Positions 1 through 64,000 of a DNA stretch of 64,000 bases are shown in pieces. Position 1 is the first letter of the stretch; every line of letters starts with the position of its first letter. The notes below the pieces were generated by a model that had not been told where the DNA came from, made no database searches, and saw only the letters and a list, made by a program, of their open reading frames with translations. The translations under genes and the position numbers were made by a program. Source of the stretch: Bryobacterales bacterium (GTDB lineage: Bacteria > Acidobacteriota > Terriglobia > Bryobacterales > Bryobacteraceae); contig CAWCJO010000023.1 of NCBI GenBank assembly GCA_963795935.1, positions 33,688 through 97,687 on the forward strand, read 5' to 3'.

Positions 1-3000
1 GGCCGATCGCGGCAGCATCGAAGGGACCGTAACGGACCCGACGGGAAGCGCGGTTCCGGGAACTCAAATTGAGGTGGTCAATATCGAGACGAACAGCAAA
101 CTGGATTTCTCGACCAATGAGGTGGGGTATTATCTGGCAGCCAATCTGCCGGTCGGGTCCTACCGCATGATTGTGCGGAAGGAGGGCTTCCGCACGGTTG
201 TTCGAGAACCCATTTTGGTAAACGCCCAGAGCAGCTTGCGCGTGAACTTTAAGTTTGAAATCGGCTCCACTTCCGAAACCGTCAGCGTCAGCGCGGAAGC
301 GCCGCTGCTGGACGTGTCGGCCACCAGCGCGCCCAACAATCTTACGGCGCAGTTCATCGACGATCTGCCGCTGCTCAACTTCGCCGAAAAGAGCAACATC
401 ACGGACAACCTGCGATTCCTGCCCGGAAATACTTCGAGTAATGGGAGCTTGAACAGCAATGAGCCGGCGGAGTCGTGGTCGGGCCGCGTGAATTCAGCGC
501 TCCAGGCGCGACCGAGATTTTTATCGATGGCGCCCCGTCGAGCGAGTGGAGCACGCGGCGCGGCTCCGTCCTGGAGAATGGGCCTACCGTGCAGGCGGTG
601 TCGGAGTACAGCGTGGTCGCCAACGCCTTCAACGCCGAGTACGGCGGGTTTGGGAGTTGGTTCACCACCGTCAACATGAAATCCGGCACGAATGTTCTGC
701 ACGGCATGGTCTACGACACCTTCGCCAATGACGATTTGGACGCCCGCAACTTCTTCCAAGGTCCCGTGAAACAGAAGCTGCGGCTTAACGAAGGCGGCTT
801 CCAATTTGGCGGCCCGGTATACATCCCCAAGATCTACGATGGCCGCAACAAGACTTTCCTGTTCTTTAGCCAAGACCTGTTCTATTCACGGCAAGGCGGC
901 GCCGGAGGCCTCGAGACCGTTCCGGCGGCGGCCTTCAAGACGGGCAATTTCAGCAATCTCGTGAGCGCATCGGGCGCGCAGATTCCGATTTTCGATCCTG
1001 CGACTACGCAGCCGGACGGCAATGGCGGCTTTGTTCGCCAGCAGTTTCCGGGCAACGTTATCCCAGCCTCGCGCATCAGTCCGGTTTCAGCGAAGATCGC
1101 GGCCTTGCTGCCGAACCCGGACCTTCCGAGCGAGGCGAACAATTGGTACAACAGGACCGGCGCCTTTCCCTACTTCAACACCTTCACCTCGCTTGCGAAA
1201 GTCGACCACAGTTTCTCGACGAAACAGAAGATCGCGGTTATGTACCAGAATGAGTGGCGTCCGCGGCTCATCAACAATAGCGGCTGGGGATTCACCGCCA
1301 ACGCCGTGCCCGGGCTTCCCACGGAGCCGGACGTACTGGAAGGCTTTCAACTACAGACCGTAACCAGCCAGACCTGGCGCGCCAACCACGATTATATTTT
1401 CAGTCCCACCGTGCTGAACCATCTCACCGTGGGCGTCGACCGGTACGTGAATCCGTACACGAACACCAGCGTCGGGCAGGGCTGGGACCAAGCGCTGGGT
1501 ATCACGGGAATGCCGAACGACCTGGGCGCGTTTCCGCAGATCAGTTTTACGGGCGGCACGGCATCGCCCATCAACATGGGGCTCACCAGCAACGGTTTGG
1601 GAGCGCAGACGCGCTTCTCGATCAGCGAGAGTCTGACGTGGATTCGCGGACGCCACACCATGAAATTCGGCGGCTCCCACTGGCGGTATGACAATAACAG
1701 CCGTAACGAATCGTCAACCGCCGGAAGTTTTACGTTCAGTAACCAAATGACCAGCCAGCCGGATTCGCCGAACCTGACAAGCTGGGGCAGTTCCTTTGCG
1801 AGTTTCCTGTTGGGAGACTTGCAGAACGCGAACACGACATTACCGTACACGACAGGCTACCGGTTCCGCCACTATTCTTTATTTGCGCAGGACGACTTCC
1901 GGATTAAGCCGAATCTTACTTTGTCTTACGGACTCCGTTGGGATGTCGCTCAGGCGCCTTTCGAGGTCAACAGCGAAGTGAGTTCCTTCAGCCCCACGGT
2001 CGTGAATCCGGTGGGCATCCCGGGCGCGCTCGTTTTCGGCGGGAGCGGGCCGGGCCGCACCGGGAACCAATTCGTCAAGACGTGGATGAAAGGTTTCGGT
2101 CCGAGGCTGGGCGTGGCTTACTCGGTGACGCCCAAGACCGTCATCCGGACTTCGGCGGGGATCTATTACTCCGACGCAACGGACACCGGCGGGTATACCG
2201 CGGGCTTCTCCGCGTCGCCGAGCTTCAGCTCGGCGGATAACTACACGCCGGTCTATAACTGGGGAACGAGCGGCTTCCCGCAGAACTACAGCTTGCCTCC
2301 GCAACTGAGGCCGGATTTCCAAAACGGGCAAAGCATAACGTGGCTGCTTCCAGCGGGGACTCGCCTGCCGCAGATTCTGAGTTGGACGTTCGCAATCCAG
2401 CGCGAATTGATGCGCAACGTGGCGCTCGATGTCTCGTACATCGGGAGTCATTCGACGCACCTGGCAGCGGGCAGCAGTTTCGATTACGTAAACGACAGCT
2501 ATCTTTCGCTAGGGAATCTGCTGTTGCAACCCGCGGGGTCGGCCGCTGCCGCCGCGGCCAATGTTCCTCTGCCGTTCTCCACCTTCCCGAACTTGAGTGT
2601 GCATACCGTGGCCCAGGCGCTGATGCCGTATCCGCAGTACACCTCCGTCGGAACGGGATCGGAAAACGATCCGGTGGGCAGTGCGCGTTTCAACTCCTTG
2701 CAGGTGAAGGTGAACAAGCGATACTCCAACGGACTGACGCTGCTCACCTTCTTTACTTGGATGAAGAACATGAGCACGCTCGAACCGGACCAGTACACGC
2801 CCGTGCGGCCGATTGTCTACAGCGGAGATTCGCCGCCATTTACTTTCGTGTTCAACTGGAGCTACGAGTTGCCATTCGGGTCCGGGAAGAAGTTTCTCAA
2901 TTCGGGCAACTCAATCCTGAAGAGGCTGGCGGGCGGTTGGAACATCGCCGGTTACGTGCGCTACAGCTCCGGGGACGCTTTAAGCTTCGCCGTGGCGAAC

Positions 3001-3396
3001 AATCTTTCGGTTCTGGGATATGCCGCCAAATTCGCGGATTACGTGCCGGGCGCGCCCATATTCGGCACCACCGATCCGCGCGACTTCGACCCCGCTGTCA
3101 GCAGGTATCTCGCTCCCGGCGCCTTTGTCGTTCCTCCTCCCTACCAGTTCGGCAATACAGCTCCCGTTCTGGACTGGGTGCGCGGGTTCTGGCAGAAGGC
3201 GGAGTCGATTTCGTTGGGCAAATCGTTCCCGATCAAAGAGAGGCTGCGCGCGCAGTTCCGAATCGATGTGAATAACCCGTTCAACTTCGTGCGTTGGGGC
3301 GATCCCAACACCAGCATTACCAGCGCGAATTACGGACAGGTGACTTCGGCGGCGGACCCCAGAAAGATCCAGCTTTACCTTGCGATAAGGTTCTGA
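1..3396 (+). CDS. TonB-dependent receptor, Acidobacteria type (N-terminal carboxypeptidase-regulatory-like domain, plug, beta-barrel). The 5' end lies outside the window. There is an apparent -1 frameshift near 440-475: frame 2 to ~470, then frame 1 from 475.
   Basis: N-terminal motifs TVTDPTGSAVPG...VVNIETN...YRMIVRKEGF...ETVSVSAEAPLLD are typical of the CarboxypepD_reg domain and closely parallel the other two receptors in this window. Downstream there is a plug-like ...FIDGAPS... and a long beta-barrel with a C-terminal aromatic residue. Frame 1 has a stop at 460-462, and the frame-2 text becomes junk after ~470. Confidence 0.8.
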
Positions 3397-3416
3397 ATTT
3401 TGCCGCGGAAATTAAT

Positions 3417-4817
3417 ATGACAAAACGCAGAACGTTTCTTTCTATCTTTTTGATGCCGGGTCTCGGCATTTCTTTGTTGGGCCAGAACCCGGCGGTGGCT
3501 TCGCAACAGGCCCGCGCGGCTCCAGATTTCCTGAATCGCGCCATTATCTATCAGGTGTGGATGCGTTCCTTTACTCCGGAAGGGACCCTGAGAGCCACGG
3601 CGGCGCACCTGCCGTATATTGCCGATCTTGGGGCCACTATCGTCTACCTGAGCCCTCTGAACGTTCACGGCTATCCGTCGGTGTTCGGGCCTTCGACCCC
3701 GTATGAAATTAAGGACTACGATCGAATCGACCCCGAGTACGGCAGGGAAGCGAACCTCAAAGCGCTGGTGGAGGAAGCTCACAAGTTGGGTCTGAAGGTG
3801 ATTATGGATATCGTCTTCGCCCATAGCGCAAACGATAATGTCCTGCTGTGCAAACCCGGGTTCTATCAGCGCACGCCGGACGGGGCGCTCAAGATGTCGC
3901 GCTGGCACACGCCGATGCCGGACTACACCAACCCCGCAGTGCGCGAGTATTTCCGCAATAACATGCTGCATTGGGTTCGAGACGTGGGCGTGGACGGGTT
4001 CCGGGCCGACGTGGCGGGCGGCGTGCCTTTGAGTTTTTGGGACGAAGCGCGGGAGGCGATGGACAAAGTCAATCCCAATGTGATCATGCTGGCCGAAGCG
4101 GACGTGCCGCAACAGCAGCTTAAGGCCTTCGATATCAGTTATAACTTCCCGTATTATTCGGCGCTTACCGCGGTGGTGGTAAACGGCGAATCGGCCGAGC
4201 GCATTCAGCAACAGTGGGAGAAGGCGAAGGCCGCCTTCCCGCGAGGCGCTCACTTCCTGCACTTGAACGATAACCACGATCGCAACCGGGCGAACGTGGT
4301 GTTTAGCGAAAAGGGAGCGCTGGCGACTTCCGTGCTGGATTTCACTCTGGACGGAATTCCGCTGTTGTACAACGGAGAGGAAATCGGCGATTGTACGCCT
4401 CCTCAACAGCAGTCCCATGTGGCCATCCGGTGGGAGATCTGGAAGCCGGAGGAGGAGCGCACGGGTCTTGCGAGGGTGCAGGAGGCGAAACTAAGGGTGT
4501 ACAAGCGGATTCTTCAGATGCGCCGGGAAGAGGCGGCGCTTACTTCGGGCGAGCTGCTGTGGGTCAATAACAGCAACCCGGATGAGGTGGTCAGCTTCAT
4601 ACGCAGGACGGGCAATGAAGAGATTCTGGTATTGGTTAACGTATCAAACCGTATCTCTAAAGTACAGGTGGACGTGCCGGCTTCGGAGTACGCACGAGCC
4701 ACGGACCTTCTGAAAAAGCGGCCGCTGCCGGCCTCACTCTCTCCGGACAAATTCAGTTGTCAGTTAGGAGCGTTTGACTATATAGTAGCGAAGCGCTCAG
4801 CGGCAAAGACTCCGTAA
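3417..4817 (+). CDS. Secreted alpha-amylase family glycoside hydrolase (GH13)
   Basis: Signal peptide MTKRRTFLSIFLMPGLG. GH13 signatures are present: GFRADVAGGVP (catalytic Asp region), MLAEAD (Glu) and FLHLNDNHD. It starts 21 bp after the TonB receptor stop. Confidence 0.8.
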   Translation: MTKRRTFLSIFLMPGLGISLLGQNPAVASQQARAAPDFLNRAIIYQVWMRSFTPEGTLRATAAHLPYIADLGATIVYLSPLNVHGYPSVFGPSTPYEIKDYDRIDPEYGREANLKALVEEAHKLGLKVIMDIVFAHSANDNVLLCKPGFYQRTPDGALKMSRWHTPMPDYTNPAVREYFRNNMLHWVRDVGVDGFRADVAGGVPLSFWDEAREAMDKVNPNVIMLAEADVPQQQLKAFDISYNFPYYSALTAVVVNGESAERIQQQWEKAKAAFPRGAHFLHLNDNHDRNRANVVFSEKGALATSVLDFTLDGIPLLYNGEEIGDCTPPQQQSHVAIRWEIWKPEEERTGLARVQEAKLRVYKRILQMRREEAALTSGELLWVNNSNPDEVVSFIRRTGNEEILVLVNVSNRISKVQVDVPASEYARATDLLKKRPLPASLSPDKFSCQLGAFDYIVAKRSAAKTP

Positions 4818-12217: not shown

Positions 12218-14325
12218 GTGCTTCGAGGTAGATTGCTTATCGCCGCCGCGCTGTGCTCCCCGGGGTGGGCGCAAGCGGTGAATTTGCAGGGCCATGTTCG
12301 GAGGCTTGACGGAGATACGGCATCGGCGATGGATGGGGCGGGAAATGTGTACAGTTACCGGGTATACGACATCATCCAATTTTCCCGTGACCGTGGGGGC
12401 GTTTCAGCAGAGTTCCATTCCCGCTCAATGCGGTTTTGTTCCCGGAAAACGGCTTTCCTGGCTCGCCGATTCCCTGCCCCCCGGATTCGCCGCCAAGATC
12501 GATCCCAGCGGCACGCGCCTGGTTTATGCGACCTATCTCGGCGGTGAACAGGAAGACGATGCGAAGGCCATTGCTGTGGACGACTCCGGCAACGCCTATA
12601 TCACGGGAAGTACCAGTTCGATGGCGTTTCCGGTCACGCCGGGAGCGTGGCAGACGGGATTGGGAAGCGAACTTTTCAACGGCTTCATAACCAAATTGAA
12701 TGCGGCGGGCAGCGGTTTGGTTTTTTCGACCTATTTGCCGGGTGGAGAGGGGGACGCGGTCGCGGTAGACGGCGCGGGGGACGTGTTCGTTGCTGGCACT
12801 GCGTCTGGCGCCACATTTCCGGCCACGCCGGGGGCGTTTCAAACAATCGCATCCTGGGGCATGAGGACGCCTTTGTTCTGAAGTTGAACGCGGCCGGGAG
12901 CAGCTGATCTATGCCACCTTACTAGGCGGGTCGTTGGCGGACATAACGAGCGCACTCGCGATCGATGCGGCGGGAAACGAATACGTGGCGGGGATCACGG
13001 CATCTGTTCCGGCCAACGCGCATCTTGTGACCGACAGTTTCACCTCGTTTCCGGTTACCCGGGGGCGGTAGATGGATCGGGGATCGTCGCGGACGGCTTC
13101 GTCGCCAAAGTGAATCCGCTTGGGGACGGCGCTGGTGTAATCGGCCGTGTTCGGCGGGAGCGGAGACGATGGTGTTCTAGCGCTGGCGGTCGATGCGGCT
13201 GGCGACGCGTATTTTCCGGTTATATGCGAAGGTCGATTTTCCCGTCACCGCGGGCGCATGGCGCGCCGCTATGGCCCTGGCTTCGCGGGAAAGCTGAACA
13301 GCCATGGGTCCGAGTTGGCCATTTGAGCTACCTCAGCGGTGCGATTAAATTGCCGTGGATAGCGCGGGCGACGCTCTCGTCACGGGGAGCACCTGGATGC
13401 CTCGGATATTGCGACGACGCCAAACGCGAACATGCCCTGTTTTCCTTAAATCCGGTCCGGGCGATACTAGCAAACCATCATCGTGCGGCTCAATGCGACC
13501 GGCACGGGACCCCTCTATTCCTCGTATGCAGCAGGCGCGGTAGTTGCAGCGGATGCATCGGAATCTATTGGCCAGCGTTCGGCGATCCCGGAATCAAATC
13601 ATGGCTCCGATCGCGCCGAGGATTCGATTGCGCGGTGACCGCCGCTCAGCGTATCGCGAAGGTGCGATTCGCAGGAGGAGATCTTGTCTTGATTCGCGCG
13701 ATCCTGGGCCGGAACAGGCGGCGGGGGCCTGAAGTCGAAGCTCCGCCAAGTGGCGAGGACGCTCGAGAACACGCCGTCTGATCGGCGGGGCGGCGGCTCC
13801 GTTGCTGTAGGTTCCCCCAGCCAGATCAACCGTCACGCTGTTTGAGATCACGGGGCAGACGCAGACGGCCATACGTTCAAATCGACACGGCGCGCAGGGC
13901 TGCCGCCATTTCAGACGCAGGTCGCGGCTGCATACCGGGGATTTCCGTTCGATGGCACGGGCTAGGGCAGGCGATGGCGTTGAACCAGGACGGGACGGTC
14001 AACTCGGCGGCGAATCCGGCGGCGCCGGGGTCGGTGGTGAAGCCTCTTCGTTAAGGGAGCGGGCGCCATGACGCCTACGCCCGAGGATGGATCGATTCCC
14101 GCGGCTTCGCTGCGAAAGCTCGGAACGATAAGCCTGAACATGATCGGCGCGCCCTTCGGGGTGCAACTGCAATATGTGGGGGACGCCCCGGGGTTGGTGG
14201 AGGGCCATGGGCAAATCATACCGTGTTATCTGGTCAGTTATCAACCGGGACCGCAGGATGTGGGTCTGTCGGTGGGCAACGCGGGCGTGCCGGTCGGGCT
14301 GAACGTAACGGTTTTTGTTCAATAA
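12218..14325 (+). pseudogene. Decayed SBBP beta-propeller-repeat protein with a Solibacter-type C-terminal domain (Soli_cterm / TIGR03437-like). Many frameshifts and stops.
   Basis: Fragments in all three frames carry SBBP-repeat signatures (YATYLGG..DDAKAIAVDDSGNAYITGSTSS..FPVTPGA; LIYATLLGGSLADITSALAIDAAGNEYVAG). The C-terminal pieces QAMALNQDGTVNSAANPAAPGSVV and GAPFGVQLQYVGDAPGLVEGHGQIIP...VGNAGVPVGLNVTVFVQ match the Soli_cterm pattern. No single frame is open for more than ~200 aa. Confidence 0.6.
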
Positions 14326-17201: not shown

Positions 17202-17256
17202 GATTTCATGATAGAGAATCGGAATCGGCGCGCTTGGAGCGGCGGCCCCGGGATTG

Positions 17257-17613
17257 TTAAGCGGCGGATTCTTCCGTCTCTATGCGGCTGCCGGCGGCTA
17301 TGTTGACCAGGATGACCCCGTTCTCGACGCGCGTGGGATAAATGGCCACGCAGCCGGGGCGGGAGGCAGCGACAGGGGCGCCGGTTTCAAGATCGAATTT
17401 CCAGCCGTGCAGCGGGCAGACCACCACGCGGCCGGAAACGATGCCGTCGCACAACGGGCCGCCCTGGTGCGGGCAGGCGTTGTCGATAGCGAGGAAGCGG
17501 TCTCCGAGATTGAAGATGGCAATCTCCACGCCGCCCGCGGTTACCGCCCGGCCCTCGCGCAAAGGGACATTTTCGGTTCTCGTGATGCGTACCCAACCGC
17601 TCGCGGGGATCAT
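17257..17613 (-). CDS. nirD: Nitrite reductase small subunit NirD (Rieske-type)
   Basis: CPHQGGPL...CPLHGWKF Rieske motifs. Size 118 aa. ATGA overlap with the upstream nirB. Confidence 0.8.
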   Translation of the reverse strand: MIPASGWVRITRTENVPLREGRAVTAGGVEIAIFNLGDRFLAIDNACPHQGGPLCDGIVSGRVVVCPLHGWKFDLETGAPVAASRPGCVAIYPTRVENGVILVNIAAGSRIETEESAA

Positions 17614-20033
17614 GCGAAGGCGTTCTCCAGCGGTTCGATCTGAACGAACTGAGTGGGATTGACGGGGGCTTCGCGCTCGAGCCAGGCATCTTTGGCGAGA
17701 GCCTTCGAGCGCTCCAAACGTTCGAGAAGTTTCAACTGCTCGGGCTCCGTCGCATACACCGTTTCCTTGCGGATCTTCTCGATGCCGAGGCGCTCGACGA
17801 AATCGTACGTGCGTTCGAGATAAATGGCGTTTTCACGGTAATACTCAAAGAATAATTCAGCGGCGCGGATGGCGTCCGCCGTGGTTTCGACGGTGAGCAG
17901 CAGAGCGGCCTTGCGAACTTTCTTGCCAGCGGCGCCGCCAACGACCACTTGCCAGCTTCCCTCCTGCCCCACGAGCCCGATGTCTTTCACGGTCGCTTCA
18001 GCGCAGTTGCGGGGGCAGCCGACGGCGCCCATTTTGACCTTGTGAGGGGTGTAGAGATTTTCCAGGCGCCGCTCCAGCTCGATGCCGGCGGCGGTGGAGT
18101 CCTGCACGCCGAAGCGGCAGAATTCCGTGCCCACGCAGGTCTTCACCATGCGAACGCCCTTGGTATAAGCCTGGCCGGAGGGCATGCCGAGGTCCGCCCA
18201 TATTTTTGGGAGATCCGATTTGCTTACGCCCAGCAGGTCGATGCGCTGGCTGCCGGTGATCTTGATCATGGGGACGTTGTACTTTTCGGCGACATCGGCG
18301 ATACGGCGCAACTCGGCGGCCGAAGTGACGCCTCCGCGAATCCGCGGCACCACCGAAAAAGTGCCATCGCGCTGGATGTTGGCGTGGACGCGATCGTTGA
18401 TGAAGCGCGCGGAGCGATCCTCCTCGTGATCGCCGCACCAGACCATGTCGAGCAGGTAGCTTAGCGCCGGCTTGCAAACTTCGCACCCCTTGCGGTTGCC
18501 ATAGACATTTAGGACTTCCTGCACCGATTTCAACTTCTGGCTGAGCAGAATCTCGCGGAGCTGCTCGTAAGAGAATGGGAAACAGGCGCACAGCGTGGTG
18601 CGGGGCTCTTCTTCGAATTGCGGGGTGACGGCGCGAAGCAATTGCTCGCATAGGGCGGTGCAGCTTCCGCAGCCGGTGGAGGCGCGGGTGCACTCCTTGA
18701 GCTGCGCAAGGGTGTTTACGCCGCGCTCGTGAATTGCATGGATGATGTCACCCTTGCCGACGCCGTGGCAACCGCAGACGATTTCGCTGTCGGCGATTTC
18801 GGCCACGTCGAGTCCGGGGTCTTCGGTAGTTTCGGGAAAGAGAAGGCGGCGGCGCTGCTTTGTGAGATCGAGGCCGTTCCTCAGCCAGTCCATGTAGCGG
18901 TGACTGTCGGAGGCGTCGCCCACCAGGATGATGCCGGTCAGCTTACCGTCCGTGAGCAGCAGCTTTTTGTAGATACCGAGAGACGGCGTCTTCGTAATGG
19001 ACGATCTCTGTTTCGGCGGCCGATGCGGGGCTATTCTCCGCGAGATCGCCGGCTGAGAAAACGTCCACGCCCATGATCTTCAGCTTGGACGCGGGCGCGG
19101 CGCCTTCGAATGTCAGGCCGCGATTGCCGGTGATGGCGGCGGCCAACACCTTGCCCTGCTCGATCAGCGGCGCTATCAGGCCGTAACAGACGCCGCGGTG
19201 TTCGACGCACTCTCCGACCGCGAAGATGTTCGGCTGCGACGTTTCCATGTAGTCGTCCACGACGATGCCGCGATTAACTTTGAGACCGGCGCGGCGAGCT
19301 AAGTCCACGTTGGGCCGAATGCCCGCCGCAATCACGACGAGGTCCGCCGCGATCCGCTCGCCATCGGCGAACTGGATGGCTTCCACGCAGTCGTGGCCCA
19401 GGATCGCCGATGTTCCACGGCTCAACAGTACGCGGATGCCTAAGCGCTCCATCTTGCGCTTGAGATAGCTTCCGGCGGTGAAATCAAGTTGCCGCTCCAT
19501 GAGCGTGTCGAGCAGGTGGACGATAGTAACGTCGCATCCCTGAATCTGGAGCCCGCGGGCCGCTTCCAAGCCCAGCAGCCCTCCGCCGATGACGACGGCT
19601 TTTACGCCCGGACGCGAGCGTTCGAGAAGACTGCGCGCATCGTCGATATTGCGGAAGGTCAGGACGCCGTTTTTATCCGCGCCGGCGATGGGAGGGATAA
19701 AAGCCGAGCTGCCGGTGGCAAGCAGCAGCTTGTCGATAACTAGTTACGCCGCCATCGTCGCCCGTGACCGTTTTGGTTTCCGCGATCGACTTCTACAACA
19801 CGCACGCCGAGACGCAGGGCGATGCGATGTTTGCGGTACCAGTCGAGCGGATGGAGAGTAATCTCATCGAGCGATTTTTCGCCGGCCAGTACCGAGGATA
19901 GAAGTATGCGGTTGTAATTGGGATGGGTTTCATCGCCGAAGATCGTAATTTCAAACTTCCGCGCATGCTTGAGGATTTGTTCCACGCAAGCGACGCCCGC
20001 CATTCCATTGCCGGCTACAACCAGACGCTGCAT
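17610..20033 (-). pseudogene. nirB: Assimilatory nitrite reductase large subunit NirB, disrupted by at least three +1 insertions (near 18940, 19733 and 19780)
   Basis: Three consecutive ORFs in different frames cover it: an N-terminal FAD/NAD part (VVAGNGMAG...), a middle part (IDKLLLATGSSAFIPPIAG...VVIGGGLLGLEAA, readable only after a one-base correction), and a C-terminal part with BFD-like TGCGSCT and siroheme/4Fe-4S Cys motifs (CVGTEFCRFG...AVGCPRNCAEA). Confidence 0.75.
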
Positions 20034-20124
20034 AAGATAATTCGTATCTCGATTAGGACTTACGAGGTCCGCTGCGGGAGCAGAGAGCTACCCCGGCTCA
20101 TCTGCTTGTTACAACAACGATAAG

Positions 20125-23286: not shown

Positions 23287-23295
23287 TCGCGTTCT

Positions 23296-27200: not shown

Positions 27201-27384
27201 GCTGCGCGATTTTCTGATTGGGGAGCGGTTCCGTTTGCAGTTCCGGGCGGAATCGTTCAATTTGATGAACCATCCTAATTTTGGATTGCCGAACATGGTG
27301 ATTGGAAATCCCATGGCAGGCATCATCACGTCGGTGGTCAACCCGGAGCGTCAAAATCAGCTTGCATTGAAATTATATTTCTAG
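24234..27384 (+). CDS. TonB-dependent receptor (Acidobacteria type) with a +1 frameshift at ~24960
   Basis: Signal peptide plus CarboxypepD_reg motifs (GVVTDRTGSVVPGATVQIV...YQITVTKEGF), plug (VTDLPLNGRSF), and a barrel with terminal LALKLYF. Removing one C in cttccatgg restores ...NVTLQIGNEQLHGDLFEFLRNSDLDATPYF... across the two ORFs. Confidence 0.8.
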
Positions 27385-30388: not shown

Positions 30389-30403
30389 AATCGTATTTCA
30401 TCG

Positions 30404-38838: not shown

Positions 38839-39039
38839 CGCGCCAATCTCAATCAGCTTATTACACTCGAGACCCGGATGCGTGGCCGGGTATGCACGTA
38901 GCCTGAGACATGCAATCGGGAGCTGAGGACGCGCCGATCTTCGGCGGCAGGGGTTCTTATCGCGGCGTAATCGTCCTCGGACGGATGTATACTCTTGAGG
39001 ATCGGCGGCCAAACGGAAATTCGGATAGAGGAGCCCCTA

Positions 39040-42000: not shown

Positions 42001-42488
42001 AGTTGGTTGGGGGCTGGGAGTTCAGTACCATCACCACGGTTCAAAGCGGCGCGGCGACTGAAACGGCATCATGGGACTCGGCCGGCGTGGTCTTCTCGCC
42101 GAGCGGCGAACGGCTCAACTGCCTTGCCGGCGTGAATCCGGTTCTGCCCAATCCCAACGCGAGTGGCGGGTACGGTTGGTATAACGCGGCGGCATTCTCA
42201 AACCCGGTCGCCGGCACGTTCGGAAACTGCGGCCGCAACAACTTGAGGGGGCCGCGAATGGTGAATGTCGATTTCTCGGCGATCAAGCATTTCCCGATCG
42301 CTGAAAGACAGTCTCTCCAGTTCCGCGTGGAAATGTTTAACGCTCCGAACCATGTAGAGTTAGGCACTCCGGGTTCGGTGAGCTGGGGAGGCAGCTCGAA
42401 TGTTGCGCCACCCTCGAATTTCGGCGTCATTACTACGACCGCCGCAAGCATGCGCCAGATTCAGTTAGCGCTCAAGTACGATTTCTGA
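39040..42488 (+). CDS. TonB-dependent receptor (Acidobacteria type), intact
   Basis: Strong SD (ggatagaggag) 6 nt upstream of the ATG. CarboxypepD_reg motifs (GEVKDQSGAIVAGVAVTATN...YQVKAVATGF), plug (ISELPLNGRDF), and a long barrel ending LALKYDF. Confidence 0.85.
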
Positions 42489-42489
42489 C

Positions 42490-44595
42490 TTACTTGCTGG
42501 GATAGCCGTGAAGCTGCGGGCCCACCACGTTCGAAAACTTGTAGCCGCCACGGCGGTCGGCATCAATAGTCCAGAACATCGCTCCGATCATGCCGGGATA
42601 GCCGCCCGTCTTGCGCAGCTTGTACTTGGTCCCGGCGGGAGCCTTGCCGGTGATGATATAGTCCATCGCTTGACTCACGATACTGGGCGTTGTATCTCCG
42701 GTAAGGAAGCCGACCGCAACCTTATCGGCCGGCATCGGTGGGAAGAACTCCTTGGGATCGCCTCCCACGTTGAAGCCGTGCAGCAGGAGCTCCGTCATGG
42801 CGGCATGATAGTCCACGGAGCCGGGCTGATAAATCTCGCCATCGAGACCCTCCAGCGGCGGCGTGTTGTAATCCTGCACATCGATGAACGACAGAATGTC
42901 GCGGATGGCGTACGCGATGGGCAGATATGAGCCGAACTGGCCGCCATAGCTGGGGTAACCGGAGGGGATCTGCGTCCCTTCGGGAACCAGGCTGATCATG
43001 AAACCGGGGCCAAAACGATCGCGCAACTGGCGCAACGCGGAGATGAGGTTCACGATGGATGGCGTTGTGGGATGTTTGAAATCCGTGTCGCCGGGGTCGA
43101 TCGAAAGGGAAGGGCTTTCGAAGTCGATGTCGATGCCGTCAAAGCCATACTCGGTGACGATCCGCGTAACGGAGGAGATATAGTTCGGAACGCGCTTCGG
43201 ATCGGCAAGCGTGAAGTGCTGGCCGCCGCCTCCGAGTGAAATGATGACCTTCTTGCCGTGGCTCTTCAACCAGGCGATGTCGGCCTTGAACTGTTCGGTA
43301 TCAAGCCCGGCGGGCGTGTGGAACTGCATGGTCCCTTCCGGCGCATTTTTGTCCGGCGTAGCGAACGCGACGATAATGACGTCCCACTGCGGCGAGACCT
43401 CGCGAAGCGGAAAGGTGGAACCCGCACCGCCGTAGCCGGCCCAGTAGCCGATGAGCCAATGTCCGTTGGGCGCGCCGCTCAGCGGGAGTGGCCCGGCCAT
43501 GAGCTCAGAATACACGCCCGCGGCAGGACGGCCGCGCGCCGGGCATGGCTTGGAAGGCGCGCTGAGCGCCTGTGCGTCCGGAAAGCTATACGTACTGCCG
43601 AGGCCTTCGGCGGCGCCGGTATACCAGGGCAGCAGCGCTACGTTTTGCAGGTGATAGACGCTTCCGTTCACATCGGCGGCGAAGGCAGTCGATGCGGGGA
43701 TGTTGTTTTTTGGGTTCGTATTCGTGGGTTCGAGAAGGAAGTAGGTGGAGGCAACGCCCGTGCCCCCGCAGGAGCCTTGATCTCCGGGATGCATCGGAGC
43801 CGGGACGCATCCAGCCGGGAAAAACGTTTCCCGGACCTTTGACGTTGCGGCCGTGCGCCAGCGGATCGTGCAGAGGATCGTTGATGAATTCCCCGAGTTG
43901 CTGCGTGAGCGGCTGCACGTCGCTGTCTTCGACAACGGAGGGCGCGGCATGCAGATAAGACGCGAGCACGAAGGAGTTTCCGGTCGCGGAGTCGACCCCG
44001 TGCGTTCCCCAGGAGCAGCACACCGTGGCATCGCCGAGGGCGTAGTAAGCAGTGTTATGCGTCACGGCGATGACGAGCTTGCCTTCCTGTTTGGGAAGCA
44101 GGTTGAAGAGTTCCTTTTGCAGAAATTCGATATCGACAACGCCGAAGGAGCCGCCGGTCCTCTTCGAGGTGAGGATATAACCATACCCGACGGGGACGGT
44201 GATGTTTACAGGCTTCACGTCCGGCCGGCCGAGCAGCGTATGCCAACCGTCAGTCTTGGAGAAGGTGCTGCGCAGCATGGCGTCGGCATACTGTGTGGCT
44301 CCGCCGGACGGAAAGGCGAACTTCGAGAAGACGGGCGAGCGGAGGAGGCGCGGCGCGTCCGGAGCTGCGTCCATGATAAAGCGCTTGCCGGCGGTCTTCT
44401 TCGCATCAAAGGAGAGGGTGACGGGAACGAGCATTGTGGGAATGGTGGTGGTTCCCCCCTGTGCGGGATCGCGGCCGACGAGAGTGTAGGAGGCTTGGCC
44501 GACGGTCTGCTGGAACGTGGGTACCGCGCTTTGCGCGCGCGCAAAGTGCAGCGGCACGAGGAAGAAAAACAACAGACGCGTCGATTTGATTCGCA
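42490..44595 (-). CDS. Secreted GH18 chitinase-like glycoside hydrolase with an N-terminal accessory domain; frameshift somewhere around 43800-43900
   Basis: Signal peptide MRIKSTRLLFFFLVPLHFARAQ. The C-terminal ORF has GH18 signatures VIISLGGGG and YGFDGIDIDFE (DxxDxDxE catalytic motif). The N-terminal 369-aa ORF and the C-terminal 513-aa ORF overlap in different frames. Confidence 0.65.
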
Positions 44596-44691
44596 TATCC
44601 GGGTTCGCAGAACTCTGATATAGGATAACGGAGCCAAAGGGGCCCCCGCGGCGATAACTGTCTGCCACTTCGCTCTCTTGATCGAAGCGGC

Positions 44692-45216
44692 TCACATCTG
44701 CTTGGCGTTAGCTATAAGCCGATCGAGAGCCCGACCCCAGCCATCGCGGAAGCCCATCGCCTCGTGCCGCTTTCGTCCCGCCTCATCCCGGCGAATGGCC
44801 ATGGCGGTGTACCGTGTTCCCTTCCCTAGCGGTTCCAGCGTCACGATCGCCGTAAAGAATGGATTGTCGGAGGGGCGGTACCCAGGGAGCAGCGCATCGG
44901 TCCAGACCAGCCGCTCGTTCGGAACGATCTCCAGATAGCACCCGATACTTGGGAACTCCTGCCCGTCCGGCGACCGCATTACGGTTCGGAAAATGCCCCC
45001 GGGTCGTAGATCGATCTCGCAATCGGCGACGGTCCACGGCGCCGGCGTGAACCATTTGCCGACATGCTACGGCTTGGTCCAAGCTGTCCAGACCAGGTCC
45101 CGCGGTACTTCGATGATCCGCTCAAGCACGAGGTCGAGCTTGGGATCGGGTTTTACAAGCCGGATGGCCTCATGTGCGTTTCCCCTTGAATTCAATCTAA
45201 GGACTATTTGTCGAGC
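44692..45216 (-). pseudogene. SRPBCC / AHSA1-family (activator of Hsp90 ATPase homolog-like) protein with an in-frame TAG (minus strand, 45067-45069) at a normally conserved Glu
   Basis: Reads ...[30 protein letters not shown]...[34 protein letters not shown].... The family consensus at this position is W.DPEH...W, so TAG likely derives from GAG. Confidence 0.55.
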
Positions 45217-45512
45217 TGATCCGGGCGGCGTTCCCAGAGATCGCGTTGCTGGACCAGCCAGTTCTCCGCGATTCTCAGGCGCTTGGGGACGAGCCGATAG
45301 GTGCGTACGCGGCCCGTCTTCCTGGAGCGCACCAGCCCGCAGCTTTCCAATACAGCCAGGTGCTGGACGAACGATGGGAGCGCAATGTCGAACGGCGCCG
45401 CGAGCTCGCTCACGGAGGCGGGGCTCCTGCTCAACCGTTCCAGCACGTGGCGGCGAGTAGGATCGGACAGCGCGCGGAAAACGCTATCGATCGACTCTAC
45501 TGCGTTGAGCAT
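45204..45512 (-). CDS. ArsR/SmtB-family metalloregulatory transcriptional repressor
   Basis: [17 protein letters not shown]...[33 protein letters not shown]...Y is the canonical winged-HTH ArsR signature. Classic pairing with a downstream SRPBCC gene. Confidence 0.85.
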
Positions 45513-45563
45513 GGAGACGACGGCCGGGACCTTCCTTCCTCAACGATTCTCGCGACCGATAAC

Positions 45564-45773
45564 TCATACGTGATAATCGCGTCGCCGGATCCACTGCCGG
45601 AAAAGCCATGCGCCGGTATTCATCGATGACGCCGTCGAGGTGTTCCGCTCGGCCCTCTCGATCGTGGTCCAAGCCACGTGTTCGGCATGCTGTTCATCCG
45701 TCGCCGAACTCGCCTCCCAGCGAAGGCCGCGACGCCGGCGCGCGTCGTTCTCCGGCGCAACCGTCTTTCCCAT
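45564..45773 (-). CDS. Possible small protein (69 aa) upstream of arsR
   Basis: ATG preceded by a strong SD (ggaaggagcggcgATG). No recognisable domain. A perfect palindrome lies 72-93 bp upstream. Confidence 0.25.
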   Translation of the reverse strand: MGKTVAPENDARRRRGLRWEASSATDEQHAEHVAWTTIERAERNTSTASSMNTGAWLFRQWIRRRDYHV

Positions 45774-45844
45774 CGCCGCTCCTTCCGCCGTTCTCCCATG
45801 AAGACCGCGCGGGCGCTTCAAGATCGAGTATAGAGCAAGGCTTA

Positions 45845-45866
45845 CACTTAGGTCAATACCTAAGTG
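45845..45866. promoter_or_regulatory. Perfect 9-bp inverted repeat CACTTAGGT-caat-ACCTAAGTG, a candidate operator upstream of the small-ORF/arsR/SRPBCC transcription unit
   Basis: Read directly from the sequence. ArsR/SmtB operators are imperfect 12-2-12 inverted repeats, so this is a plausible but unproven assignment. Confidence 0.4.
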
Positions 45867-45956
45867 ATTGGGGACGCGGTGAAGACGGCCGGACACGCAG
45901 CCATCGCGCCGGTTGGGGAACAAGCATCCTCTCCAGACGCAGCGCCGGAATCCGCG

Positions 45957-46631
45957 CTAGGGCAGGAAACGATATCCGACGCCGTGGACAGTAATGAAAT
46001 GGCGCGGCGCGTTGGGGTCCGGTTCCAGCTTCTGGCGAAGCTTCACGACATGCGCATCGACGGTTCGCGTGTTCGGGAAAGAATCGTAACCCCAAACGGA
46101 GTTGAGGATCATGTCGCGCGTTAAGGCGCGGTCGGGGTTGTGAACGAAATGCGTGAGCAGGTTGTACTCGGCGGGAGTCATTTTTAGAATGGCGCCCTTG
46201 CGCTTTACGATGCGGCGCTCGAAGTCGATCGTCACATCGCCGAATTCGACGATTTTGCGGGCGTCCGGCAGCGTGCGCCGCAGCAGGGCGCGAATCCTTG
46301 CCAGCAGTTCTCTCGCGCCAAAGGGCTTGACCATGTAGTCGTCCGCCCCGATTTCGAGAAGCAAAACCTTGTCCACCTCTTCGCCGATGGCGCTGAGTAC
46401 GAGGATGGGAGTCTGGATCTTGGCGGCGCGCAATTGCTTGCAGATCTCGATGCCCATCATTCCGGGAAGGCGCAGGTCAACCACCATGAGATCGGGCTTC
46501 GCGGACAACGCCCGCTCGTAGCCGGTCTTGCCGTCGGCGGCGAGCAAAGGGCGGAATCCCTCCTGTTCGAGCAGAATGCCGATGGTATCGCGGAGGCTCT
46601 CGTCGTCGTCGATTACGAGTATCGTAGACAT
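45957..46631 (-). CDS. OmpR/PhoB-family two-component response regulator (orphan)
   Basis: Receiver domain (ILVIDDDESLRD...DLMVVDLRLPGMMG) plus a winged-helix trans_reg_C domain (LTPAEYNLLTHF......VWGYD....RTVDAHVVKLRQKL). Confidence 0.85.
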   Translation of the reverse strand: MSTILVIDDDESLRDTIGILLEQEGFRPLLAADGKTGYERALSAKPDLMVVDLRLPGMMGIEICKQLRAAKIQTPILVLSAIGEEVDKVLLLEIGADDYMVKPFGARELLARIRALLRRTLPDARKIVEFGDVTIDFERRIVKRKGAILKMTPAEYNLLTHFVHNPDRALTRDMILNSVWGYDSFPNTRTVDAHVVKLRQKLEPDPNAPRHFITVHGVGYRFLP

Positions 46632-57193: not shown

Positions 57194-58546
57194 CTAGCCC
57201 GCGGCCCCCGCTCGCATCCCGCGGTGCAGGCCGAGTGCGCGAATGCGCTTATGCAGGTTCGTCCGCTCCATGCCGAGCGCCCGCGCCGCCCCCGAGACGT
57301 TCCAGCTCGTCTCTTCCAGCACCCGCAGGATGTGATCGCGCTCCGCCGCGTCGCGGGCTTCGCGCAGGTTCGAACGAGGCGCGGCATCGGAGCCCATCCG
57401 GATCTCGACGGGAATCGTTTCCGCCGTAAGAATATCGCCGGAGTTCAGAATCGCCATCCGCTCGATCGTGTTGCGCAGCTCGCGTGCGTTTCCCGGCCAC
57501 GAATACTCCTCCAGCGGCCGGAACACGTCGGGGTCGATCTGTTTCGGATGGAAATTATTGCGGGTGCAGAATTCACTCAGAAAATACTCGGCCATCGCTG
57601 CAATGTCCCGCGTCCGCTCGCGCAGAGCCGGCACGCGAATGGGCACGACGCAGAGGCGATAGTACAGATCTTCCCTGAATTTCTGTTGGCCGACCAACTC
57701 CTGCAGGTTGCGGTTGGTCGCCGACACCACGCGAACGGAAACGCGAATAGTCTGTTCTCCGCCGACGCGTTGGAACTCGCCCTCCTGCAAAACCCGCAGT
57801 AGTTTGGCCTGTGAGCCGGCATGCAGATCGCCGACTTCATCGAGGAAAATCGTGCCGCCATCGGCCATCTCGAACTTCCCGCGCCGCATCGCGACGGCGC
57901 CGGTGAAAGCTCCCTTTTCGTGCCCGAACAGCTCGCTTTCGAGCAGCTCGGACGGGATGGCGGCGCAATTCACCTTCACGAAGGGGCCGGATGCGAAGGG
58001 GCTCTCGCGATGAATGTGCTCCGCCAGCAGCTCCTTGCCGGTACCCGATTCGCCCATCAGCAGGACGCGAGCGTCGGAGCGGGCCGCCATGGCCGCTTGC
58101 TCCACCACCTTCAGGAATGCCGGACTGGCGCCGATCATCTTCGGTCCCACGCCGGCCATCTCCCGCAATTGCTGGTTTTCACGCCGCAGACTCGATTGCT
58201 CCAGCGCATTCTTCAGCGTCACCAGAACCTTGTCGCGAGAGAGCGGCTTTTCAAGAAAATCGAACGCCCCGGCGCGCGTCGCCTCCACCGCGTCGGCGAT
58301 CGTTCCGTGCCCGGATATCATGACCGCCGGCGCGGAAATTTCTTGTTCGCGCAATTGCCGCAGCAGGTCGATGCCGCTTCCATCGGGCAGTCGGACGTCG
58401 AGCAGCAACGCATCGGCGCGGGCGGCCAGCGCGCGGCCCTCCTCGACGGATCGCGCGATCGTCACGGCGTAACCGGCGTGTTCAAGAATCATCTGCAGCG
58501 AGCGGCAGATGTTCGGCTCGTCGTCGAGGATGAGAATTCGTTTCAT
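57194..58546 (-). CDS. Sigma-54-dependent response regulator (NtrC family)
   Basis: Receiver (ILILDDEPNI...LLLDVRLPDGSG), AAA+ sigma-54 interaction domain (GESGTGKE, GAFTGA, ESELFGHEKGAFTGA) and a C-terminal Fis-type HTH. Confidence 0.85.
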   Translation of the reverse strand: MKRILILDDEPNICRSLQMILEHAGYAVTIARSVEEGRALAARADALLLDVRLPDGSGIDLLRQLREQEISAPAVMISGHGTIADAVEATRAGAFDFLEKPLSRDKVLVTLKNALEQSSLRRENQQLREMAGVGPKMIGASPAFLKVVEQAAMAARSDARVLLMGESGTGKELLAEHIHRESPFASGPFVKVNCAAIPSELLESELFGHEKGAFTGAVAMRRGKFEMADGGTIFLDEVGDLHAGSQAKLLRVLQEGEFQRVGGEQTIRVSVRVVSATNRNLQELVGQQKFREDLYYRLCVVPIRVPALRERTRDIAAMAEYFLSEFCTRNNFHPKQIDPDVFRPLEEYSWPGNARELRNTIERMAILNSGDILTAETIPVEIRMGSDAAPRSNLREARDAAERDHILRVLEETSWNVSGAARALGMERTNLHKRIRALGLHRGMRAGAAG

Positions 58547-59916
58547 GCGCGCGGCAGCAGGACGCGAAATCCCGCGCCTCCCAATTCACTCGCGACCAGT
58601 TCCAAATCTCCGCCCGAGAGGACCGCGCCGCGGCGGGCGATGGACAGCCCCAGTCCCATGCCGCCCGGCTTGAACGAAATCGTGGGCTGAAAAAGCGAGC
58701 CGCGCACGTGCGGGGAAAGACCCGGTCCGGAATCGTGGACCTCAATCGCAACCTTGCCGTTTATCGCATTGGTAATTCCCAGCACGCAGCCGCCGGAATG
58801 CATCGCTTGCGCCGCGTTCTCGAGCAGGTTCGTCAGAACGCCTTTGACAAGATCTTCATCCGCCACCGCGCGCGGCTTGTCGTCCGAAAGACGCACCGCA
58901 TAGGCGATCTCCGGGTGCGATGTCTTGAGCAGCGAAATCCGCTCCTGCAGAAGCAAATTCACGTCCAGCTCCTTAGGCCGCACCGGAGGTTCGCTCGAGA
59001 ACTCCGCGAACGATCGAACGCGGCGCTCCAGAGCCGCGACTTCGTCCACGACGATCTGCGAAGCCTGCTGCAGAAACTCGTCGCCCTCCCCGCAATACCG
59101 CGCCGCCACTTCTTCCATCGTGAGGCGTATGGGCGTCAGCGAATTCTTCACCTCGTGCGCCATCTTGCGCGCCAGCGCCTGCCAGCTCTCCAGCCGCGTC
59201 ACATAGACCAGCCGTTCGCGGGAATGCCGCAACTCCTCCGCCATGCGGTTGAACGTGTCGATGGCGCCCGCCAATTTCGTCGTAGCGCGAGATCTCCACG
59301 CGCTGTTCCAGCCTCCCCGCCGCCACCTCCGAAAGACCGCGCGTGAGCTGCCGTATCGGACGCGTCAACCGCTGCGCCCACAGGATCACGCCCAAAAGCG
59401 CCAGACCCCAAATGGCCCCCGCCAACACCAACAGCGTGTAAACATAGCCCCGCCGCAGCTCGCCGCCGTTGGCCTTCTCCACCTTGGCGCGGGCCTGCGC
59501 ATACTCCTCGCGCATGTGCCCCAGCTCCACGCCGTGCAGCGGGGTCGAATAGACCCACACCTCCTGCCCGTGCCGCACCAAATAGTCGATGCGGGAGCCG
59601 CCTTCGCCGCCCAGGCCGATGCGCTCGGGTTCTTCGGTAGCGGCGAACTCCGCGGCCTCCGCCGGCCAGTGAGCGCGATCCGCGGCGTCGCAACACGACC
59701 GGCGCGATGCGACCCGCGGCGGCGTCCCGCTTGAGCGAATCTCCCGCGCGCTGGTATAACTCATGTCCCACTTTTTGCAGCGATCGGGAAACATCGTCGA
59801 GCTCGCCGAGCGTGAGGCTGCGCTGCAGCAGTGAAATCGAGATCGCGACGGTGATGGCCAGCGGCGCCAAGGTCGCGATCGCAAACCCGGCGATAAGCCT
59901 GTTGCGGACCGTCATC
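58543..59916 (-). CDS. Sensor histidine kinase (NtrB-like partner of the NtrC regulator), broken by at least two frameshifts (near 59285 and ~59700)
   Basis: Three overlapping ORFs in different frames: an N-terminal TM/sensor (MTVRNRLIAGFAIATLAPLAITVAIS), a second TM plus HAMP (LTRPIRQLTRGLSEVAAGRLEQRVEISRYDEIG), then HisKA (MAHEVKNSLTPI) and HATPase_c (NLLENAAQAM...DSGPG...GGMGLGLSI). Confidence 0.7.
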
Positions 59917-60517: not shown

Positions 60518-61863
60518 TCAGAAGTTCATACCCGCGATAAAAACCGGCTGCACGCGATCGGTCCCGAGGGGAAAGGCGACTGCGAGCAGTACTCCGTTTA
60601 CTTTAACTCCGATTCCCGCCGATTGCTTCGGCTCGGCTTTTATCCCACGATCCCAGATCGCGCCCGCATCGTAGAACACGCGCGCTATCCCATAGCCATA
60701 CCCAGCCGACCCGTACACAACGCGGCTGCCCCCCAGCGGGTCCAGCTCGAATTTATCCCACCCGCGCAGCGCGCCGCTCGTGCCCAGAACGAAACGCTCG
60801 TACAGGGGAGCGCGGCCCAGGATCGCTCCCGCGGTGAAAGACGCTTCGGCGGTTTGGTGTCCGCGCTTCCAGTGATAGCTGGCGTCGATGGCGTGCCGCG
60901 TGTAGGCGTAGGCGCTGCCCAGCAAGCTGGTGGCGGCGTGCATGCTGTAAAGGGCGCTGAAGCGATGCTTGCCGTTTGTCGAGTCGCCCATTCCTTGTCG
61001 TACCGCAAAGCGCTGACCACCGCGTTGGACGATTCCGTTCCCGTCCCCGGCAACTGCGGTTGCATCTGCTCAAAATTCAAGCCCACCGTCCAGGTGAGCG
61101 GTCCCGCAACGGCGATCGTGGCCGCAGGCTCGAAACTGTTGCGCGTGCGGTACAAACCGGAGAGATCCCCTTGCCGCGCCGCCGCGGTTTCCGTCGCGCC
61201 GTCAAAGCTTTCGTGGAAGCTGTCGAACTCGAAGCTCAACCGCACCCGTTCCGAGCCATGTTCCGGGAACAGTCCCATATGGTCGTACCGCGCGCGCACG
61301 CCCGCTTCCGTCTCAAGCAGCGAATCTCCCTCCTTCAGCACTCCGAACGTGAAGGTATTCTTTCCGGCATACACGACCGCATCGCCTTCGCCGCTCCAGC
61401 CTTCGCGAGAATCATAGAGCAGCTTCCGCCCCTCGACATCGAAGGCCGTACTGGGTCCATTCACTTCGAACGTGACGCGGACGTGCGCGGGATCGGCCCC
61501 GCGCGTCAGCCTGAAAACCACTTCATGGCCGTGGAGCTCGCCGCTGATGCGCCGCGCCATGCTTTCGAACATGTCCGTGTTGAAGTGCGCCCCGACCAGG
61601 TCCTGCATATCTTCGACCAGCGATCTGCTGATGCGATACCGCCGGGAATTGGCAATCCCGACGCTCTCGACGGTATACCGGGAATTGACGTTCATGTCGG
61701 CGGCGGCGTTTCCGGCCGCCTCTTCCCACGCCGTCGCTTCCAGGACGCCGGCCGGCTGGGTGGGGGAGGCTGGCTGGGCAAGGGGTTGTTCGGCGTCAAT
61801 CGTGTTTGTCTGGGTTTGTCCCGAAGCCAAAACCGCAAACCCAAGAACCAAAGCGAGCTTCAT
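60518..61863 (-). CDS. Omp85/BamA-family outer-membrane beta-barrel (single POTRA-like N-domain); frameshift near 60990-61010
   Basis: Signal peptide MKLALVLGFAVLASGQ. The C-terminal ORF ends with the characteristic YGYGIARVFYDAGAIWD...PVFIAGMNF (beta-barrel with terminal F). Two ORFs overlap in different frames. Confidence 0.6.
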
Positions 61864-62944: not shown

Positions 62945-63451
62945 ATGAGAAGCTTCATCGTCACCGGCGCGCCGGGTGCGGGCAAGACAGCGATCATTCG
63001 TCAGTTAGAGCTCGACGGGTTCAGCGTAGTCGAAGAGGCGGCTACTGACGTCATCGCGGCCGCGCAAGCCCAAGGAACGGCCCAACCCTGAATGCATCCC
63101 TCGTTCCTTGATGTAGTCGGTAATCTGCAAAGTGCCCGTCAAATTCGAGCGTCTTATCAATCAGACGAGGTTCAGTTTCACGACCGTTGCGTTGTGTGTA
63201 CCGCGGCTTTGGCAGGCTACCTCGGGGGCCCTTATACGCGCTTCCTTGCCGGCGAATTGGAGCGCGTCAAAAAAGAAGCAATCTACCAACACCGAGTCTT
63301 CTTCATTCGCAATCTTGGCTTCATCACGCCTACCGAAGCGCTGCAAATCGCCTTTGAGGAAACGGTGCGCTTCGAGAAACTTCACGAAGAGATTTACCAT
63401 CAAAGCGGCAATGGCTTAGTCGAACCATTGCCGGCCCGCGGAGTTATTTAA
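62945..63451 (+). pseudogene. P-loop AAA-family ATPase (AAA_28-like) interrupted by an in-frame TGA (63089-63091) at a probable Trp
   Basis: MRSFIVTGAPGAGKTAIIRQL (Walker A) ... AQGTAQP*MHPSFLDVVG continues in the same frame. TGA likely derives from TGG (P-W-M). Confidence 0.55.
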
Positions 63452-63935: not shown

Positions 63936-63947
63936 TGTCCTATACCT

Positions 63948-63986
63948 CTTAATTGACTGCGTTAATTGACCGCGTTAATTGACCGC
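63948..63986. repeat. Three tandem 13-bp direct repeats (cTTAATTGACtGC / gTTAATTGACCGC x2) immediately upstream of the merT-like gene
   Basis: Read directly from the sequence. AT-rich units embedded in GC-rich DNA overlap the expected promoter. Confidence 0.7.
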
Positions 63987-64000
63987 GCCGACCTCAAGCG

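Follow-up and report, generated by a model that had tools for sequence, protein, structure and literature searches.

Gene content and gene interruption in the window

We analyzed a 64-kb stretch of a Bryobacterales contig (CAWCJO010000023.1, positions 33,688 to 97,687; the whole stretch is referred to as the window), in which 13 of about 46 genes (about 28%) are interrupted by frameshifts or in-frame nonsense codons. The window has a G+C content of 61% and a strong third-position bias, with a G+C content at third codon positions of about 0.75 in real genes. Its gene content is typical of Acidobacteriota, including CarboxypepD_reg-type TonB receptors and ASPIC/UnbV and SBBP-repeat proteins, and sulfatases, nirBD, ppx and a sigma-54 two-component pair are also encoded; no tRNA and no Rfam elements were found within the 64 kb. 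Judged by its sequence, the DNA is Bryobacteraceae-like. In a free-living bacterium, usually only a few per cent of the genes are interrupted, far fewer than in the window.

The interruptions were located by two independent routes. In one, a 3-periodic Markov model trained on the long open reading frames (ORFs) of the window was used with a Viterbi path over six frames, and changes of coding frame without an intergenic gap were recorded. In the other, all ORFs of 158 related loci were compared with the window by tblastn, and sites were recorded at which the collinear matches of a single reference switched frame. An extra base is denoted +1 and a missing base -1. The two routes agreed, and every position listed in the original prediction was recovered, each within about 50 nt. 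That prediction had counted at least 14 genes; all of its lesions stand, and the number of genes becomes 13, since the lesions assigned to a "P-type ATPase" and to "hflK-1" share one fusion gene. Outside the gene for an SBBP-repeat surface protein, 14 to 15 frameshifts lie in 10 genes (0.24 per kb of coding sequence), together with two nonsense codons, and the SBBP gene alone carries about 19 frameshifts.

Among 185,579 species representatives, the genome nearest to the window was the Bryobacterales metagenome-assembled genome (MAG) MFD09603.bin.2.34 (GCA_963838885.1) of the Microflora Danica (MFD) project, referred to as the sister. Its identity to the window is about 85% for DNA and 88 to 95% for protein. 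One sister contig (L001) is collinear with the window at 16.2 to 17.2, 20.2 to 23.3, 24.2 to 38.9 and 46.0 to 46.7 kb, and another (L159, CAWITB010000027.1) at 9.8 to 14.2 kb. Since no protein 93 to 99% identical to any of three test genes was found among 5.8 billion proteins, no conspecific genome was available for comparison; the best relatives reached 92% identity for the ATPase and 83% each for dinG and PGA_cap. The two loci related to the surroundings of dinG (L077 and L078) have only three genes in common with the window; they yielded no references and were used as a control for the type of error.

Three further frameshift candidates were rejected. At 10525, where the Viterbi scan had proposed a frameshift in a patatin gene, the sister has the same layout of a patatin gene and a 105-aa ORF, and the window patatin aligns in one frame. 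The junction at 44694 is a gene boundary, and the junction of TPR and ASPIC at about 7.9 kb separates two genes, the ASPIC protein having its own signal peptide.

Single-base frameshifts in conserved genes

At eight of the sites, 12 to 78 relatives per site read through in one frame; no orthologue of the GH18 gene was available. After repair, the profile matches of nirB, a xylose-isomerase-like gene, sulfatase 1 and an AAA_28 ATPase gene became continuous.

The nirB gene (17610 to 20033, minus strand) carries three +1 frameshifts. Two of them, at about 19781 and about 19735, are 46 nt apart, and the motifs VEVDR, ETKTVTGDDGGVTSY and DKLLLATGS continue one another over three frames. At the third, at 18984 (context GACGCCGTCTC), the Pfam domain Rubredoxin_C is divided between two ORFs. 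Repaired NirB matches TIGR02374 over positions 1 to 789 of 794 with 884.6 bits, against a cut-off of 578. The nirBD segment (about 3 kb, 17219 to 20186) is absent at the collinear site of the sister (L001, 980 to 2181), where about 1.2 kb of unrelated sequence is found instead; because of this absence, assimilatory nitrite reductase is variable between the two lineages.

A P-type ATPase-SPFH fusion gene (30404 to 33405, plus strand) is interrupted twice. Its first +1 frameshift, at 30817 to 30818, was localized with the related loci L001 and L002, and 29 references switch there from frame 2 to frame 3. The second, at 33136 to 33138, is the lesion previously assigned to hflK-1; 29 references switch from frame 3 to frame 1. 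All 120 homologues listed are about 1,000 aa long and combine PF00122 (E1-E2_ATPase), PF00702 (Hydrolase) and PF01145 (Band_7), so that the fusion architecture is common to all of them.

The fusion gene belongs to a cluster at 27401 to 38900 that is conserved in the related loci L001 to L076. The cluster starts with a beta-propeller/PHP (DUF3604-like) protein of about 990 aa, followed by the fusion protein of about 1,000 aa, in which a P1B-type ATPase is joined to a C-terminal SPFH/Band_7 (HflK-like) domain. The cluster is completed by individual genes for an HflK-like and an HflC-like protein, a gene for a 157-aa protein and, on the opposite strand, a second propeller/PHP paralogue. The propeller gene is present at 76 loci across Bryobacteraceae and Terriglobia. 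The second paralogue (propeller B, 35933 to 38900, minus strand) is itself interrupted at 37093 to 37107, where 12 references switch from frame -2 to frame -1. In the alignment to the sister, the event consists of two +1 insertions 14 nt apart (37093 and 37107), or else it is a single net +2 or -1.

Two TonB-dependent receptor genes on the plus strand are interrupted. TonB receptor 1 (1 to 3396, cut by the window start) has a -1 frameshift within 442 to 520, at about 455 to 475. Pfam places CarboxypepD_reg in frame 2 and the OMP_b-brl_4 barrel in frame 1; the high-scoring segment pairs of paralogues switch frame at 442 to 475, the Viterbi junction lies at 493, and localization by paralogues is ambiguous (472 to 520). 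TonB receptor 2 (24234 to 27384) has a +1 frameshift at 24938 to 24940, where 34 references switch from frame 3 to frame 1. Compared with the sister it contains one surplus base, and the amino-acid identity is 95% on both sides of the junction.

Five more genes, all on the minus strand, contain one or two frameshifts each. Sulfatase 1 (about 20186 to 21687) lacks one base at 20278 to 20279, 30 codons ahead of its true stop, as placed by alignment to the sister; with repair, its SGSH_C match lengthens from profile position 139 to 149 and rises from 44.4 to 50.8 bits. A gene for a xylose-isomerase-like (hydroxypyruvate-isomerase-like) TIM barrel (23295 to 24159) carries a +1 frameshift within 23392 to 23525, with a best estimate of about 23508 from the interval of ORF overlap and the Viterbi path, and the repaired protein matches TIGR03234 over positions 2 to 250 of 254, unbroken across the junction. 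A histidine kinase gene (58543 to 59915) carries two +1 frameshifts. At 59266 to 59270, between HAMP/HisKA and HATPase_c, 45 metagenome references switch from frame -1 to frame -2, and NCBIfam histidine-kinase models span the junction after repair. At 59691, in the periplasmic sensor region, 43 references switch from frame -3 to frame -1 within 59614 to 59746. An Omp85-like outer-membrane protein gene (60518 to 61863) has a -1 frameshift at 60985 to 60987, where 78 references switch from frame -2 to frame -1; residues from about 50 to 447 are encoded in a single frame at 80 metagenome loci.

The fifth gene, for a GH18 chitinase-like protein (42490 to 44596), has a probable +1 frameshift within 43586 to 44061 (best estimate about 43806), as suggested by intrinsic evidence from ORF overlap and the frame model. 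Two ORFs of high coding potential on the same strand overlap by 475 nt around a Viterbi junction, and a signal peptide is present in the upstream ORF only. The junction falls in an N-terminal domain of unknown function, and the catalytic domain (residues 380 to 690) is intact and matches PDB 3n11 at 263 bits.

Outside the SBBP gene, the lesions were distributed as expected for random placement by gene length: 11.4 genes were expected to be hit and 10 were observed (P = 0.22), and in 31% of trials at least one gene received three or more lesions. The earlier view that the damage is not uniform does not hold for this part of the window. Because placement fits gene length, long untouched genes are to be expected and are no sign of selectivity.

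A hot spot of frameshifts in the SBBP gene

The SBBP gene (12218 to 14325, plus strand) contains about 19 frameshifts and 2 to 5 in-frame stops, with lesions between 12290 and 14040. Since plain tblastn was too blurred by the repeats, the frame path was followed by peptide-wise blastp against 150 SBBP proteins, in which the coding frame switched at least 10 times between 12350 and 13400. A frameshift-aware protein-to-DNA alignment to the sister orthologue gave 21 events, two of which flank a lesion of the sister itself, arise from stitching and were excluded. The remaining events comprise 6 of the +1 type and 13 of the -1 type. All are 1 nt long, the alignment can do without multi-base indels, and the gene has kept its length. 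Within it, 495 nt (12354 to 12848) are free of lesions, and the damaged part has about one lesion per 100 nt. This density is about 40-fold above that of the rest of the window, which breaks the pattern of random placement (Poisson P of about 1e-23); if the lesions are errors, the consensus must be locally poorer here.

The sister orthologue (L159, 7700 to 10060) is nearly intact. It consists of three frame segments and thus has two frameshifts, each of them at a place that is undamaged in the window. In the annotation of the sister, only a 288-aa C-terminal ORF is called, and 1.3 kb is left without a called gene. Two independent assemblies thus have a weak spot at the SBBP gene. DNA-level repeats were considered as a cause of the hot spot and rejected, since only weak motif repeats were found.

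The heavy damage of this gene had been taken to argue for genuine pseudogenization. An explanation that keeps this view holds that the scattered frameshifts are errors, but that the SBBP gene, together with the two genes carrying nonsense codons described below, consists of true pseudogenes. For the SBBP gene, such an explanation can draw on the lesion density, on a deletion bias unlike the rest of the window, on the in-frame stops and on the interruption of the sister orthologue. However, the uniform length of about 19 events, the conserved gene length and the clean 495-nt stretch do not resemble decay. When the gene is compared with the sister orthologue (dS of about 0.7 to 0.8), the ratio of nonsynonymous to synonymous substitution rates (dN/dS) amounts to 0.14 over the clean part, and where the damage is heaviest it is 0.25. 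Moreover, the two lesions of the sister are at other positions, nothing is inherited, and both assemblies are of an error-prone kind. The inference of decay from this gene is thus not borne out, and the hot spot looks technical.

Two nonsense codons

Both nonsense codons noted previously, TAG for Glu in an SRPBCC gene and TGA for a presumed Trp in an AAA ATPase gene, are present according to the translations and the PDB and Pfam alignments. In the SRPBCC/AHSA1-like gene (about 44692 to 45200, minus strand), the in-frame TAG at 45067 to 45069 (CTA on the plus strand) replaces the Glu of a conserved P-E-x-x-x-x-W-F motif, as aligned to PDB 1xfs_A (E = 1.7e-45) and 3otl. The protein is otherwise fully conserved, with 157.9 bits to 1xfs. 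In the AAA_28 ATPase gene (62945 to 63451, plus strand), the in-frame TGA lies at 63089 to 63091. With X at the stop, the protein gives one continuous Pfam match over positions 2 to 153 of 164 with 73.5 bits, compared with 31.1 bits for the downstream ORF alone.

The explanation by a few true pseudogenes among scattered errors also draws on these two codons. Each is a clean substitution that hits a conserved position of a small accessory gene, substitution errors appear to be rare elsewhere in the window, and one or two true pseudogenes in 64 kb would be unremarkable. Set against this is the otherwise full conservation of both proteins, including the full Pfam match of AAA_28. Either the two codons are substitution errors that share the origin of the frameshifts, or they represent one or two real pseudogenes, as a normal background. 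Taken over all three genes, with the SBBP gene included, we consider the pseudogene explanation unlikely, although it is the strongest of the alternatives.

An intact gene for an ArsR-family helix-turn-helix regulator (45170 to 45540, minus strand) lies directly upstream of the SRPBCC gene, a common regulator-effector pair. Both genes, together with TonB receptor 3 and GH18, are part of a region of about 7 kb (38900 to 45950) that is missing from the sister between propeller B and a response regulator gene. The region looks like an accessory insertion, and 45053 to 45957 scores as atypical in the coding model.

Spectrum and sequence context of the lesions

All of the approximately 34 frameshifts are compatible with 1-nt events, and larger indels are not seen. 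Outside the SBBP gene, there are 10 clear +1 events, 3 clear -1 events and one ambiguous site, in agreement with the original observation that most indels are +1 insertions; according to the scoring of propeller B, the +1 share is 11 of 15 (P = 0.12) or 13 of 16 (P = 0.02). Nonsense codons number 2, against 14 to 15 frameshifts outside the SBBP gene. Real bacterial mutation is deletion-biased, and real pseudogenes gather indels of many sizes. About 34 events with none larger than 1 nt are therefore hard to obtain from real mutation, and the description of the pattern as typical of sequencing or assembly error was apt in that most lesions are single-base indels of that kind. The placement of the indels in short G/C runs, on the other hand, was not reproduced. 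A run of at least 4 is found in only 2 of the 14 site contexts, and at the SBBP events the mean longest run is 3.16, compared with 3.21 in the background. With no simple-sequence repeat or long homopolymer at the lesions, phase variation by slipped-strand mispairing was also rejected.

Programmed +1 and -1 ribosomal frameshifting is known in prfB, dnaX and IS3-family transposases, where, as in the window, two overlapping frames encode one product. Recoding of this sort, be it ribosomal frameshifting, transcriptional slippage or the reassignment of TGA or TAG, would agree with the prevalence of one direction (+1) outside the SBBP gene, and the products would be full-length and conserved if the shifts were read through. 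Unlike the known cases, however, the sites in the window have no slippery site, stimulatory element or orthologue-conserved shift: none of the 14 sites contains an XXXYYYZ heptamer, a motif common to the sites or a long homopolymer, no 4-mer is enriched near the lesions, the window holds no Rfam element, and the orthologues in the 12 to 78 relatives are encoded in one frame. As for reassignment, 30 intact window genes were checked, of which one had a mis-set coordinate; the terminator is TGA in 15 of them, TAG in 8 and TAA in 6. As far as sequence can show, recoding is excluded, and we regard it as close to refuted.

Conservation of the interrupted genes and comparison with the sister

Genome decay with mass pseudogenization is known from Mycobacterium leprae and from recently host-restricted symbionts. 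As in the window, a large fraction of the genes is interrupted by frameshifts and stops in such genomes. It might be supposed that most lesions of the window are likewise real and very recent, arising in a mutator or in a population under relaxed selection, such that a free-living soil Bryobacteraceae lineage would have inactivated about a quarter of its genes by single-base insertions outside repeats. The proportion of genes hit, the position of the lesions outside the homopolymers typical of sequencing error and the interruption of some genes in the sister as well are in keeping with this supposition.

However, the interrupted genes show no trace of such a history. The ones compared have 88 to 95% protein identity to the sister (L001), equal to that of their intact neighbors. 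The repaired ATPase-SPFH fusion has no private deviations at 207 invariant columns of the 120 homologues, and intact dinG has one private change at 273 invariant columns, which is ordinary. No sign of relaxed constraint, in the form of raised dN/dS or lost conserved residues, was seen in the interrupted genes examined. The genes hit include conserved genes under selection, namely those for NirB, the P-type ATPase, the Omp85-like protein and the sensor kinase. The sister is intact at every lesion of the window that it covers, a result which at about 85% nucleotide identity excludes only old lesions. Its own frameshifts are at other sites: two are in the SBBP gene, and one is at a position of sulfatase 1 that is unbroken in the window. 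No lesion is common to the two genomes.

Decay of the M. leprae type produces mixed indel sizes with a deletion bias, shared lesions and relaxed dN/dS, as well as mobile-element expansion and a falling coding density, none of which was seen in the window. Its events are only 1 nt long with an insertion bias, it is otherwise densely coding, and its Pfam matches include no IS-type genes. Mass pseudogenization would require an insertion-prone 1-nt process acting outside repeats and too recent to leave any other trace. We consider it highly improbable that the lineage has undergone such an inactivation. If true, it would mean that an unusual mutator state favoring insertions exists and that genome decay has just begun in an acidobacterium from soil.

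Lesions of the same type in other assemblies and the likely origin of the lesions

The same type of lesion was found in another assembly. In a Flye-named contig from ENA (L078; ERZ25039529, contig_127515), four genes (NTP_transferase, adh_short and two AP_endonuc_2) are split by single-base indels compared with the intact orthologous locus L077. These lesions lie within a 4.5-kb patch (12.8 to 17.5 kb), and they are mostly +1 insertions in ordinary sequence, outside homopolymers. Since the same kind of split genes occurs there, the artefact is not peculiar to the window, and errors cluster in patches.

Assembly of the long-read MAGs of the MFD project relied on Flye and a single round of Medaka, with no polishing by short reads, and low coding density in the lower-coverage MAGs was reported by the authors (PMC12313526). 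Nanopore R10.4 consensus is near-finished only at about 40-fold coverage (PMC9262707). Gene-fragmenting indel errors in long-read assemblies have been described (PMC9262707, PMC12313526, PMC12007338).

Uncorrected Nanopore and PacBio assemblies and MAGs, whose gene fragmentation is measured by IDEEL-type tests, resemble the window in several respects. Single-base indels split conserved genes, intact orthologues exist elsewhere, as they do for the genes of the window, and the same lesion type is present in related Flye-named contigs. The known error density depends on coverage. Classic long-read errors sit in homopolymers, whereas the lesions in the window are in ordinary sequence and, outside the SBBP gene, mostly insertions.

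We conclude that the lesions are probably uncorrected sequencing or assembly errors and not gene decay, and that the genes are most likely intact in the organism. The window would come from a draft metagenome-assembled Bryobacteraceae contig with a consensus that was never fully corrected, probably from a long-read, Nanopore-type assembly of modest coverage. Leftover random single-base insertions and deletions would then break frames at the background density given above. In a patch of about 1.75 kb over the SBBP gene, the consensus would have remained near raw-read quality, at about one indel per 100 nt, likely because few reads supported a variable surface-protein gene. Low coverage would fit, since the species appears to be rare, as indicated by the protein search for close relatives.

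Several points weigh against a confident assignment to a technical origin. The lesions are not linked to homopolymers, either in the 14 site contexts or at the SBBP events, unlike the classic error mode of Nanopore R9, 454 and Ion Torrent. No methylation-type motif is enriched near the lesions (GATC, P = 0.18 to 0.29; best of 136 4-mers, P = 0.0065). The SBBP spectrum differs from that of the other lesions (13 of the -1 type and 6 of the +1 type; Fisher P = 0.04). Since the SBBP gene is also damaged in the sister, the cause could be parallel relaxed selection or a gene that is hard to assemble. Because the ATPase and dinG tests found no excess of substitutions, the nonsense codons do not obviously belong to the same error process, and the two clean substitutions may well be real mutations. 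Finally, the coverage is inferred, as is the reason for the SBBP patch, the platform is a guess, and the technical origin itself is drawn from the evidence of the sequence.

Differences in gene content between the window and the sister

The sister also carries an insertion of 8.4 kb (L159, 11036 to 19375) between the PGA_cap and patatin genes, which adjoin in the window. The insertion contains genes for a TonB receptor, a BNR sialidase-like protein, a DHDPS/NanA-like protein and an MFS protein, and it resembles a sialic-acid-type utilization set.

Implications for the annotation of the contig

The finding is a data-quality warning and not a biological discovery. Indel errors in such assemblies need not be in homopolymers and may be concentrated in short stretches of very poor quality, and would thus escape a filter that looks for homopolymers. 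Were the lesions real, a free-living soil bacterium would have been shown to inactivate genes on a mass scale; none of our results favors that reading. Taking the lesions as errors, the gene calls, pseudogene counts, completeness and metabolic inferences drawn from this contig would be wrong without repair of the frames. Nitrite reduction, a metal ATPase and receptors would falsely be inferred to be lost, and annotation would break the ATPase-SPFH fusion into three fragments.

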